From assembly GCF_057098645.1 (NCBI RefSeq), contig NZ_JBXSPU010000006.1: DNA of 4,063 nt; one strand, written 5' to 3'. Positions 1,484 through 4,063 of the stretch are shown one piece after another. Below the pieces are notes generated by a model that was given only the letters and a program-made list of their open reading frames with translations, did no database searches and had not been told where the DNA came from. Position 1 is the first letter of the stretch. Each line of letters begins with the position of its first letter. Position numbers and translations under genes: made by a program. The stretch comes from a plasmid.

Positions 1484-1492
1484 TTATCCACA
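1484..1492 (+). promoter_or_regulatory. DnaA box, perfect match to consensus TTATCCACA
   Basis: TTATCCACA at 1484-1492, immediately upstream of the AT-rich region and iterons, the typical place for a DnaA box in Rep_3 origins such as pSC101. Confidence 0.6.
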
Positions 1493-1499
1493 GGCTCGC

Positions 1500-1590
1500 C
1501 GTTAAGTTTTTAAGATCTTATTTTTAGATCTTTTTTTTTAAAACCTTTTTAGGTCTTGTAACACCATGATTTTAAAGATGTTCTGGCAAG
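1500..1590. other. AT-rich region of oriV (candidate DNA unwinding element) with two AGATCT (GATC) sites
   Basis: Strongly AT-rich, with T-runs (e.g. 1531-1539). AGATCT occurs at 1513-1518 and 1526-1531. It lies between the DnaA box and the iterons. Confidence 0.5.
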
Positions 1591-1594
1591 ATAA

Positions 1595-1678
1595 GTGGAG
1601 CTTTTGGGGGTGAAAGGTGGAGCTTTTGGGGGTGAAAGGTGGAGCTTTTGGGGGTGAAAGGTGGAGCTTTTGGGGGTG
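1595..1678 (+). repeat. Iterons: three perfect tandem 22-bp direct repeats (GTGGAGCTTTTGGGGGTGAAAG) plus a fourth 18-bp partial copy; RepA binding sites of oriV
   Basis: Perfect copies at 1595-1616, 1617-1638 and 1639-1660; partial copy at 1661-1678. The repeats are contiguous with no spacers and lie about 100 bp upstream of repA. A 22-bp unit is roughly two helical turns. Confidence 0.9.
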
Positions 1679-1687
1679 TAATCCACA
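1679..1687 (+). promoter_or_regulatory. DnaA-box-like sequence TAATCCACA (8/9 to consensus) abutting the last iteron
   Basis: TAATCCACA at 1679-1687 has one mismatch to TTATCCACA. The iteron array would then be flanked by DnaA boxes. Confidence 0.35.
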
Positions 1688-1698
1688 GAAAAAGGGGG

Positions 1699-1728
1699 TT
1701 GCAAAAAAAAAACTTCCACCCATATGAT
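1699..1728 (+). promoter_or_regulatory. Candidate sigma70 promoter of repA
   Basis: TTGCAA at 1699-1704, an 18-bp spacer, then TATGAT at 1723-1728, about 50 bp upstream of the repA ATG. Confidence 0.4.
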
Positions 1729-1755
1729 AAGTGGCGTACAGTAAAAAAACGCCAC
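1725..1755. promoter_or_regulatory. Candidate RepA operator: inverted repeat GTGGCGT / ACGCCAC overlapping the repA promoter, with an iteron-like half-site GATAAGTGG
   Basis: GTGGCGT (1731-1737) and ACGCCAC (1749-1755) are inverted repeats separated by 11 nt. GATAAGTGG (1726-1734) matches the left end of the first iteron (GATAAGTGGAGC at 1590-1601). Rep_3 initiators commonly autorepress through such sites. Confidence 0.4.
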
Positions 1756-1776
1756 CAATAGCAACGAGCAAGCGAA

Positions 1777-2478
1777 ATGTCAGATCTGATAGCTTACAAA
1801 TCAAACGCCCTTATCGAGGCAAGCTACAAGCTCACTTTGCAGGAACAGCGCTTCCTGCTGGTCTGTATCAGCCGCCTAAAATCCGGAGAAGATTCCCCTT
1901 CGCCGGATGAACAAAAAACCATGACCATCACGGCTGCAGAGTTTCATGATGCCTTTCCTGACATGGGACGGCAGCACGCTGAAGCTAGGCTCAAGGAAGC
2001 GATAGATCGCCTCTGGGACAGGTCAGTAATCATCAAGAACGAGGAAAAACGAGAAGAGTTCCGCTGGGTGCAGTACCGGGCGCAGTATTTCAAAGGTGAG
2101 GCGAAAGTAGATATCACCTTCTCCGATGCCATCATGCCGTATCTGACACAGCTCAAGGGGCAGTTTACGCGGGTAGTCGTGAAGAACGTCTCCAGCCTTT
2201 CCAGCACCTACAGCATCCGCATTTACGAGCTGCTCCAGCAGTTCCGCAGCACCGGTGACAGAACGATAGCTATCGATGATTTCCGAACCATGCTTGCCGT
2301 TGAAGATAAATATCAACAATTCAAAGACTTGAATAAGATGATAATCAAGCCAGCCATCGCCGAACTGAACGAAAAAAGCGATCTGGTTGTAGCTGTTGAG
2401 ACGATCAAAAAGGGGCGCACGGTTGTAGCCCTGCATTTTCGCTTCAAGGAAGACAAACAGATCAAGATGACGATCTAA
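1777..2478 (+). CDS. repA: Rep_3-family plasmid replication initiator (iteron-binding RepA), 233 aa
   Basis: ATG at 1777 and TAA at 2476-2478. The product has MSDLIAYKSNALIEASYKLTLQEQRFLL... and ...ITFSDAIMPYLTQLKGQFT...YSIRIYELL..., matching the pattern of pSC101-type RepA as recalled (MSELVVFKANELAISRYDLTEHETKLIL..., ...LTFSEEILPYLFQLKK...YSMRIYEWLL...). It sits directly downstream of the iterons. Confidence 0.9.
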   Translation: MSDLIAYKSNALIEASYKLTLQEQRFLLVCISRLKSGEDSPSPDEQKTMTITAAEFHDAFPDMGRQHAEARLKEAIDRLWDRSVIIKNEEKREEFRWVQYRAQYFKGEAKVDITFSDAIMPYLTQLKGQFTRVVVKNVSSLSSTYSIRIYELLQQFRSTGDRTIAIDDFRTMLAVEDKYQQFKDLNKMIIKPAIAELNEKSDLVVAVETIKKGRTVVALHFRFKEDKQIKMTI

Positions 2479-2725: not shown

Positions 2726-4063
2726 TCACTGTGACCAACCGCGATCATGTCTCCTCTCGGTGGTGTGTGTTCGTGCATCTTCCTCGCGCTGCCATTCCTC
2801 CCAGGTACGATTAAAACCCAGCGAGCGGAACAGATGATCCGGCTGTTTTTCTGGTGTGTTGACGGCAGCAAAAAGCGGTGCCTCACGGGTTTTCAGATGA
2901 AACTGCATCAGTTCTGGTGCAGGTGATATGTGGCTGTCTGCATCGTGATTTACGGCAACACCATACCCTGCATACCGTAACCCCTTATCGGTCAGCGCAC
3001 TGATGACCAGATGCCTGTTATCGGCTGAGGGAACGGCAAACGCGGGATACAGCGTACCATTAAGCCGGATAACACCGCCCAGAGAGTCATCCACGCCCAT
3101 GACCAGCAAAAGCTGAAGCTGGCGGGTTTCCCGGTCGACAGAACTCATGACCGGCATCAGCGTCGGTGGCAGACGTCCCTGCATAAAATCCACCTTCCTT
3201 GCCGCTGGTGATGGCATGGCTGGCTGGCGGTCTTCTCCAAGACAGAAAGACTCCGGCCATGTCTTCGGCTGGCGGAGATTGCGGGTATGTTGCGGCCATG
3301 TCTGGCAAACCTGCGTCAGCAGTTGCTCAAAGGTTGCAGAGGAATAAACACGTTGCAGTGGCGGACGTTGGCCGATTTCGCTTCGGTCACAGATATAACC
3401 ACTCCTGTCACGCATTAAATCAACACTCTCAAAGATTCTGGTGCGGTATTTCTCCAGCTCGTTCCCCCAGAGCGTATATTCTCCGTTCCGGTTGTGAAGC
3501 AGAAGGTAACAGGTCATTTCCCCGTTACCAGGCATGGGAGCCTCGCCATACCCCGTAACGACTGCTCTCAGCACCCCTGAATCCATAACGGCATTGTCAT
3601 TTTTCCTGAGCTGCTCCGCGCGACTACGTTCAGTATCTTCCTGTTCCTTCCGGCGCAATTCCTCTTCACGTTTAAGCAACTGGGCTCTGAGAGCTGCAAG
3701 GCCGGATTCCCCCCACTGCTGCCACTGTTTTTCAAATGCCATCTGACTCGCGGGAATGTCCTGTTTCTCCACCTTCCGGTAATGCTGTCGTAATTTTTCC
3801 ATTTGCTGGCTCAGAGACTGGATTTTTCCCTGCTCACTACGGTATTCCGGTGCCGCCCATTGCATCAGGGGAATACGGGAAAAACCGGACGAAAACGGCG
3901 ATGATTTTTTCAGGCTGGCAGCATGGCTCATCGCTTCCTTTCGTTCGGTGTTCAGCTCTTCCCAGCGTCTGCGCGTCGCCTGCATATCTGCCATCATCGA
4001 CATGGCATTACTGGTGAGTTTCCATGCCGAGTTACTGTCCTTCGGCAACGCTTCGATAATGTC
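2726..4063 (-). CDS. mobA: Long ORF with complete 3' end and frame open to the right window edge; most likely the C-terminal ~445 codons of mobA continuing across the junction of a circular molecule, otherwise a 5'-truncated gene of unknown function
   Basis: Minus-strand frame has no stop from 4063 down to TGA at 2726-2728. E. coli-like codon usage (CTG-rich). The supplied track starts at a TTG at 4048, but five further sense codons (DIIEA) precede it up to the edge, and no in-window ATG has a convincing Shine-Dalgarno. The last codon at the right edge (4061-4063) and the mobA codon at the left edge (1-3) are both complete, so on a 4063-bp circle the two ORFs join in frame (...SYTLR|DIIEALPKDSNSAWKL...) into about 715 aa. 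The N-terminal ~150 residues of this part are charged and helical (e.g. LLKREEELRRKEQEDTERSRAEQLRKN); the remainder is globular with no Walker A or other motif I can recognise. Confidence 0.6.
   Translation of the reverse strand, partial: DIIEALPKDSNSAWKLTSNAMSMMADMQATRRRWEELNTERKEAMSHAASLKKSSPFSSGFSRIPLMQWAAPEYRSEQGKIQSLSQQMEKLRQHYRKVEKQDIPASQMAFEKQWQQWGESGLAALRAQLLKREEELRRKEQEDTERSRAEQLRKNDNAVMDSGVLRAVVTGYGEAPMPGNGEMTCYLLLHNRNGEYTLWGNELEKYRTRIFESVDLMRDRSGYICDRSEIGQRPPLQRVYSSATFEQLLTQVCQTWPQHTRNLRQPKTWPESFCLGEDRQPAMPSPAARKVDFMQGRLPPTLMPVMSSVDRETRQLQLLLVMGVDDSLGGVIRLNGTLYPAFAVPSADNRHLVISALTDKGLRYAGYGVAVNHDADSHISPAPELMQFHLKTREAPLFAAVNTPEKQPDHLFRSLGFNRTWEEWQREEDARTHTTERRHDRGWSQ

Follow-up and report, generated by a model that had tools for sequence, protein, structure and literature searches.

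The inverted repeat at positions 1731-1755, which precedes the initiator gene repA of a small Escherichia coli plasmid, is very probably a RepA operator through which RepA represses transcription of repA. In this work the sites and their geometry were established by computation, as were their co-variation with both the iteron left half and the RepA WH2 helix and a layout identical to that of pSC101. An operator at the repA promoter is a known, textbook kind of control element. A preliminary description of this DNA had proposed autorepression by RepA through the repeat, and this reading is supported by arms that track the left half of the iteron, by co-variation with WH2, by a geometry like those of pSC101 and F and by the Rep_3 domains of the protein.

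The plasmid and its replication origin

The window, that is, the whole stretch of 4063 bp that was analysed, is a complete circular mobilizable plasmid of E. coli. The relaxase gene crosses the window ends, which indicates that the window is the whole circular plasmid cut within that gene. Many 4063-bp E. coli plasmids in the plasmid collection are 100% identical to the window and are typed there as mobilizable, MOBQ and rep_cluster_1778. The typing of pIGWZ12 is the same (rep_cluster_1778/MOBQ). With its backbone of approximately 4 kb, MOBQ4 relaxase, mobC and Rep_3 replicon, the plasmid belongs to the pIGWZ12/MOBQ41 group. The prototype of the MOBQ41 group is pIGWZ12 (PMC6856555). The MobQ gene (1-810 and 2726-4063, minus strand) spans the window ends, and the C-terminal 440 aa of its product have no Pfam match.

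Two Pfam domains were found in RepA, Rep3_N/WH1 (aa 7-153, 9e-41) and Rep3_C/WH2 (aa 166-223, 1e-21). The comparison with the RepE structures 1REP and 2Z9O aligned over aa 8-225, as is expected of an initiator with two winged helices. The origin upstream of repA consists, in this order, of a DnaA box, an A+T-rich stretch, four iterons, a DnaA-like box and a 90-bp promoter region (Table 1). It is the origin of a Rep_3 replicon, with direct tandem iterons located by an A+T-rich region and a DnaA box upstream of rep. Each iteron is made up of a left half, GGTGGAGC, which is the specificity-variable part, and a right half, TTTTGGGGGT. The DnaA-like box at iteron 4 is kept as T(A/T)AT(C/T)CACA in the relatives from Enterobacteriaceae and Yersinia, which indicates that DnaA sites flank the iterons on both sides. 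Upstream of the DnaA box, the element TTGCAAT-8 nt-ATTGCAA (1422-1443), which can alternatively be read as two CTTGCAA-like direct copies, was conserved in L012, L013 and L017.

Table 1. Features of the origin, the repA promoter region and the neighbouring genes in the window.
Feature	Position	Strand	Sequence	Remarks
mobQ relaxase gene	810 across window ends to 2726	minus
mobC	989-1243
DnaA box, perfect	1484-1492	+	TTATCCACA	far edge of origin; conserved in relatives
A+T-rich region	1505-1560			three 12-16-nt repeats, two of three with GATC; repeat families D2 and D3
Iterons	1590-1677	+	GA(T/A)A(A/G)GTGGAGCTTTTGGGGGT	four direct 22-bp copies; repeat family D1
DnaA-box-like sequence	1679-1687	+	TAATCCACA	abuts iteron 4; repeat family D7; in all relatives
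Site 0	1694-1701	+	GGGGGTTG	left arm of IR-1, decayed; 4/8 to iteron left half
P-up (candidate promoter)	1699-1728	+	-35 TTGCAA (1699-1704), -10 TATGAT (1723-1728)	18-nt spacer
Site A	1709-1720	-		inverted iteron left half; right arm of IR-1; inverted repeats I13-I15
P-cons (candidate promoter)	1714-1742	+	-35 TTCCAC (1714-1719), -10 TACAGT (1737-1742)	17-nt spacer; PWM 5.1
Site C	1726-1737	+	GATAAGTGGCGT	direct iteron left half; left arm of IR-2; 10/12 to iteron 1; repeat family D8
IR-2	1731-1755		GTGGCGT, 11 nt, ACGCCAC	repeat of the preliminary description; shuffle p=0.011
Site B	1745-1756	-		inverted iteron left half; right arm of IR-2; repeat family D5
repA	1777-2478	+		233-aa Rep_3 initiator; RefSeq WP_001281395
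WH2 helix codons	2305-2370	+	DKYQQFKDLNKMIIKPAIAELN	RepA residues 177-198

Iteron half-sites in front of repA

The preliminary description had noted that a 9-mer in the promoter region copies the left end of iteron 1 and is part of an inverted repeat. Both observations hold. The 9 nt with which iteron 1 (register 1590-1611) begins, GATAAGTGG at 1590-1598, recur unchanged at 1726-1734, and GTGGCGT (1731-1737) and ACGCCAC (1749-1755) are perfectly complementary, with an 11-nt spacer between them. The exact identity of the 9-mer is lineage-specific, as the 98%-identical relative L009 has GATAGGTGG at the start of its iteron and GATGGGTGG at the promoter site. The conserved element common to the iteron and the promoter sites is a core, (A/G)GTGG, with its flanks.

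Further copies of the left half are located in the same region. Site A, which was absent from the preliminary description, reads AAAACTTCCACC (reverse complement GGTGGAAGTTTT) and matches the iteron at 10 of 12 positions; its position and orientation are the same in all relatives. Site B extends the right arm of the repeat beyond the part described before, and its reverse complement, GGTGGCGTTTTT, also matches the iteron at 10/12. Site 0 lies at the expected spot 26 nt upstream of site A, where an intact site (7-8/8) is found in L002, L010 and L014. With respect to the ATG, the half-sites in the window start at -83(+), -57(-), -47(+) and -21(-), with offsets of 26, 10 and 26 nt. They form two convergent pairs, IR-1 (sites 0 and A) and IR-2 (sites C and B), each with an offset of 26 nt between first bases, and IR-2 lies 36 bp downstream of IR-1. 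The repeat described before is thus the downstream one of two tandem operators, the other of which had not been seen and has a decayed left arm here. Through sites C and B, and also A, the rep promoter has an inverted repeat with one end of the iteron in its arms.

To estimate chance expectation, the 99 nt that separate iteron 4 from the ATG were shuffled 5000 times with dinucleotides preserved. Perfect inverted repeats of 7 bp or longer and with a spacer of 3-15 nt were obtained with p=0.011, a 9-mer in common with the iteron array with p=0.024, and three sites matching the left 8-mer of the iteron at 6/8 or better with p=0.034. Two 10/12 matches to GGTGGAGCTTTT, which result from the extension of the right arm (1745-1756) and from the further inverted copy at 1709-1720, had p=0.0002 in the same shuffles. 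The signals from the window alone are modest (p approximately 0.01-0.03), and the comparative evidence is strong.

Candidate promoters of repA

P-up was the sole sigma-70-like match in the consensus scan and had the top PWM score in the window (8.1); it is restricted to the lineage of the window and L009. Among the 9 relatives scanned, 7 had a promoter at the position of P-cons as their first- or second-ranking match, corresponding to 6/7 of the iteron types other than that of the window. The best promoter matches of pSC101, F and pYR8 are located at the same position. In all of these P-cons-position promoters the -35 element lies in site A and the -10 element at or beside site C. The repA promoter is ambiguous between the two predictions, and both are candidates.

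The preliminary description had placed the repeat over the -10 element and the transcription start, and this placement agrees with either candidate. For P-up, the 9-mer covers the last 3 nt of the -10 hexamer and the left arm lies over the expected start site; for P-cons, the repeat overlaps the start-site region and the -10 hexamer. With either promoter, the half-sites extend over the start site and over core elements.

An intrinsic terminator on the minus strand, stopping transcription that enters the origin from repA, has a close to negligible probability as an explanation of the repeat. The consensus scan does list two minus-strand sites that resemble terminators (1766-1750 and 1734-1716), but their stems are weak, with 3 G-C pairs and with G-T pairs counted. 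These matches are not IR-2; they are side products of a half-site together with the T-run borne by the iteron (GGTGGAGCTTTT). The three matches of the scan are unremarkable against a shuffle mean of 1.0 (sd 0.9), and there is no minus-strand gene or promoter downstream to terminate.

Half-sites and iterons across relatives

The origin and rep region was compared among 13 relatives, plus pIGWZ12, which were taken from the plasmid collection as a graded series and come from Escherichia, Shigella, Klebsiella, Pectobacterium, Proteus, Yersinia and Actinobacillus. The design of the origin is alike in all of them, and the left half of the iteron varies by lineage: GGTGGAGC, GGTGGAGG, GGCAATGT, GGTGAACA, GGTGA(T/G).., GG(T/C)AATAT, TG(T/C)AATGC and GGCATAGA. 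Every lineage except the distant Actinobacillus plasmid carries copies of its own left half in the promoter region. In 12 relatives the half-sites are found at fixed positions and orientations, at about -81(+), -55(-), -45(+) and -19(-) with respect to the ATG.

A permutation test was used to compare the promoter region with its own iteron half and with those of others, over 8 distinct iteron types. For the left half, the diagonal score was 159, whereas the permutations averaged 132 (sd 6) and only 3 of 40,320 reached 159. Repeating the test with the iteron right halves of these 8 types gave no signal: the observed score was reached by 15,480 of 40,320 permutations.

These results bear on the possibility that the repeat is a chance feature or the decaying relic of an iteron duplication without present function. 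It is true that a 7-bp arm is short, that single-window p values are only 0.01-0.03, and that site 0 of the window and site B of pYR8 are decayed. However, the sites have diverged together with the iterons in at least 8 lineages (Escherichia, Pectobacterium, Proteus, Yersinia) with position and orientation fixed, and a neutral relic would not go on matching a changing iteron. We regard this explanation as very improbable. Since the promoter-region sites keep pace with an iteron that changes, they must be under selection for recognition by the reader of the left half.

The arms of IR-2 are imperfect in L003, L006 and L008, and the decayed site B of pYR8 matches at 4/8. The arm offset of IR-2 is 21 nt instead of 26, i.e. 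5 bp shorter, in L005 and L007. Imperfect or decayed arms and a shorter spacing in some relatives indicate that the geometry of a dimer on IR-2 is not strictly conserved, and the half-site layout appears to tolerate some variation.

It was also considered that the repeat acts as an RNA hairpin in the 5' UTR of the repA mRNA, affecting translation or stability, with the likeness to the iteron being incidental. The plus strand of IR-2 folds in every relative (-6.9 to -15.3 kcal/mol, z -2 to -5.8), and in L004 G-U pairs lengthen the stem to 13 pairs; folding is, however, inherent to any inverted repeat and adds nothing beyond the repeat itself. A transcript from P-up, starting at approximately 1735, would contain most of the repeat, whereas the start from P-cons lies inside the right arm, and no hairpin could form. 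Within each lineage the arms follow the left half of its own iteron, which a hairpin does not require, and arm complementarity is poor (5-6/8) in L003, L006 and L008, without compensation. IR-1, which has the same design, sits upstream of or across the promoter, and no Rfam family matched in the window. Taken together, a role as an RNA hairpin is improbable, and the reading of the repeat as a DNA site for RepA is preferred.

Several arrays depart from a uniform iteron type. L005 and L007 contain 3-4 different left halves within one array of four iterons (GGTGGGGG, GGTGATAT, GGTGAGGT and GGTGAGGA); these mixed arrays lie approximately 100-180 nt upstream of repA (locus about 455-540). L013 (CP077357.1) has a hybrid array approximately 100-190 nt upstream of repA (locus about 311-400), in which iterons 1, 2 and 4 carry GG(T/C)AATAT and iteron 3 carries GGTGGAGG, the pIGWZ12 type. 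The hybrid array of L013 suggests recombination between plasmids of differing specificity.

The Actinobacillus plasmid pM2656Tet (L016, 43% aa identity) has a near-complete inverted iteron (17/19) that abuts the ATG, plus two inverted half-sites in the last 100 nt before rep, which represents another operator design on the same principle. It has iteron-like promoter sites in a different arrangement and was excluded from the geometry argument.

Two further elements were noticed on the 3' side of repA. A terminator-like sequence, AAAACGC..GCGTTTTTTTT (2498-2523), lies just past the repA stop codon and is conserved with compensating changes in relatives. The hairpin CCCCCAATTTTTGGGGG (2596-2612) is located between the converging genes repA and mobQ and resembles the right half of the iteron. 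Its candidacy as a second kind of Rep site was rejected. It is conserved or compensated irrespective of iteron type (a compensated version occurs in L004 and L006), which argues for a terminator and not a Rep site, and it probably serves repA and mobQ as a bidirectional terminator between them.

The WH2 helix of RepA and DNA specificity

Residues 177-198 of RepA (22 residues) align with a 20-residue segment of RepE WH2. Similarity of this helix among the relatives tracks the similarity of the iteron left halves (Mantel r=0.56, p=5e-5). Similarity of WH1, in the same kind of test, does not track the left half (Mantel r=0.08) and tracks the right half (Mantel r=0.62, p=0.007).

The comparison of the window with L002 gives a mosaic, in which the WH1 codons are 93-98% identical and the operator region and WH2-helix codons 50-63%; at the WH2-helix codons there is a local drop to 58-63%. 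The low-identity stretches between these two plasmids are found at 1710-1770 and 2280-2340. Conversely, pYR8 of Yersinia is 73% identical overall, yet it has the same WH2 helix and the same GGTGG core. The flanks of the origin/rep module, both 5' and 3', are near-identical among family members with different iterons.

In RepE and in RepA of pPS10, WH2 reads the element that is common to iteron and operator. Contacts of RepE WH2 with GTG/GtCA within this common element have been described (PMC4980987). A scan in this work confirmed the common element in the iterons and the repE operator of F. The right-half permutation control revealed no right-half sites in the promoter region. The putative operator carries the iteron end that would be read by WH2, and the end that would be read by WH1 is absent from it. 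The co-variation in the window family appears to match the division of labour between WH2 and WH1 described for RepE.

Comparison of the natural variants points to a simple reading code within the WH2 helix motif F-K/R-x-L-N-x. Helices of the type D..K pair with GGTGG and those of the type T..R with GGTGA; helices with S/A/R..Q pair with GG(C/T)AAT, GGCATA and GGTCTA. If true, such a code could serve the design of orthogonal replicons.

We hold it to be an even chance that the family has repeatedly swapped or diversified a specificity cassette within a nearly constant 4-kb backbone. The cassette would consist of the iteron left half, the four half-sites and approximately 20 WH2 codons, and each swap would give rise to a new specificity of replication and incompatibility, with autoregulation left intact.

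Proposed autorepression of repA

Both arms of the repeat copy the left half of the iteron, the part predicted to be read by WH2. Since the arms are convergent, a RepA dimer could contact both, one with each WH2 domain. The arms lack the iteron right half, which would be read by WH1 of an origin-bound monomer. The four half-sites would span the -35, -10 and start-site region of whichever of the two candidate promoters is used. Bound RepA would exclude RNA polymerase because the half-sites cover the promoter, and would hold RepA synthesis at a set level. By homology with pPS10, F and pSC101, a RepA dimer is expected to bind at the operator and to repress repA, with an effect on copy number.

That the operator is bound purely by dimers is the least secure part of the model, because monomers and dimers of the F initiator have both been argued to act in autorepression (PMC13028717). 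The 2026 report on F argues for a contribution of both forms (PMC13028717).

A different proposal is that the sites bind RepA mainly for replication, as an origin enhancer, in handcuffing, or as extra monomer sites comparable to IR-1 of pSC101. IR-1 of pSC101 has been linked to origin function, and the layout here equals that of pSC101 IR-1/IR-2. Iteron 4 is only 30-80 bp away from the sites, and each half-site alone could bind a WH2 domain. On the other hand, the sites overlap both candidate core promoters, and stable occupancy by RepA should therefore affect transcription. Only the half read by WH2 is present, and the right half that WH1 reads in the complex of monomer and iteron is absent. 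A role in replication is also compatible with repression, as the two roles are not mutually exclusive. As the main function of the sites, we consider it unlikely, and autorepression through the operator is the preferred reading.

The element is what would be expected as the autoregulatory operator of a Rep_3 plasmid, and no concept is changed by it. The analysis provides a functional annotation, consisting of the origin, operators and candidate promoters, for a cryptic plasmid type that is present in hundreds of sequenced Enterobacteriaceae isolates. The main point of interest is how cleanly the iteron half, the operator arms and the WH2 helix co-vary in nature. As half-site, arms and helix change together, the natural series permits the assignment of protein domains to DNA halves without a structure. 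The series could also guide the engineering of mutually compatible small vectors, and pIGWZ12 is already in use as a vector backbone. Altering the replication specificity requires that the operator be exchanged too, and not the iterons alone.

Comparison with known systems

pIGWZ12 is of the same family as the window and has the same backbone, mobQ/mobC genes and origin layout. Its RepA (WP_001281403) is 79% identical to that of the window. The iteron is AGGTGGAGGAATTTAAGGT in pIGWZ12 and AGGTGGAGCTTTTGGGGGT in the window, and the operator arms of pIGWZ12 are of the TGTGG type. Of the two repeats in pIGWZ12, IR-1 is better than IR-2, whereas the reverse is true of the window. F is a low-copy plasmid. 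A copy number of approximately 15 per chromosome has been reported for pIGWZ12, and its iterons have been reported as the incompatibility determinants (PMC6856555).

RepA of pPS10 has a WH1 domain that matches RepA of the window (1HKQ, E=2e-13), and the iterons of pPS10 are 22 bp, as are those of the window. The origin of pPS10 contains four iterons, to which RepA monomers bind; dimers bound at an inverted-repeat operator repress repA (PMC4857107).

RepE of F aligns with RepA of the window over its full length, including both domains. In F, the 8-bp sequence TGTGACAA at the left end of the iteron recurs as convergent operator arms at -42(+) and -18(-), which are located between the promoter and the ATG of repE. 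The operator of F consists of one repeat, whose arms are offset by 24 nt, compared with 26 nt in the window, and F has an extra iteron cluster (incC) downstream of repE that is absent from the window. Dimers of RepE are the autogenous repressor at the repE operator, and monomers initiate replication (PMC5785507, PMC13028717).

The closest parallel in layout is pSC101, beside which the annotation places the pIGWZ12 family structurally. RepA of pSC101 is 32% identical to that of the window over the full length. Its half-sites, at -74(+), -48(-), -38(+) and -12(-), have offsets of 26, 10 and 26 nt, identical to those of the window family. The two-operator layout of the pSC101 type is found in the family, and the left arm of IR-1 matches at only 4/8 in the window. 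In pSC101 the core promoter spans the right arm of IR-1 and the left arm of IR-2, as P-cons does here, and the best promoter, with its -35 at -58 and its -10 at -36, is located in the same place as P-cons. The iterons are of similar design, with AGG, a variable 5-6 nt, an AATTTA-like sequence and GG. pSC101 differs from the window in having three iterons instead of four, a RepA of 316 aa with a C-terminal extension, the half-site GGTCTAGC and a near-consensus promoter (12.9), compared with the weak positional equivalent in the window (5.1). The window, unlike pSC101, has a stronger promoter-like site 15 bp upstream of P-cons and a decayed left arm of IR-1.
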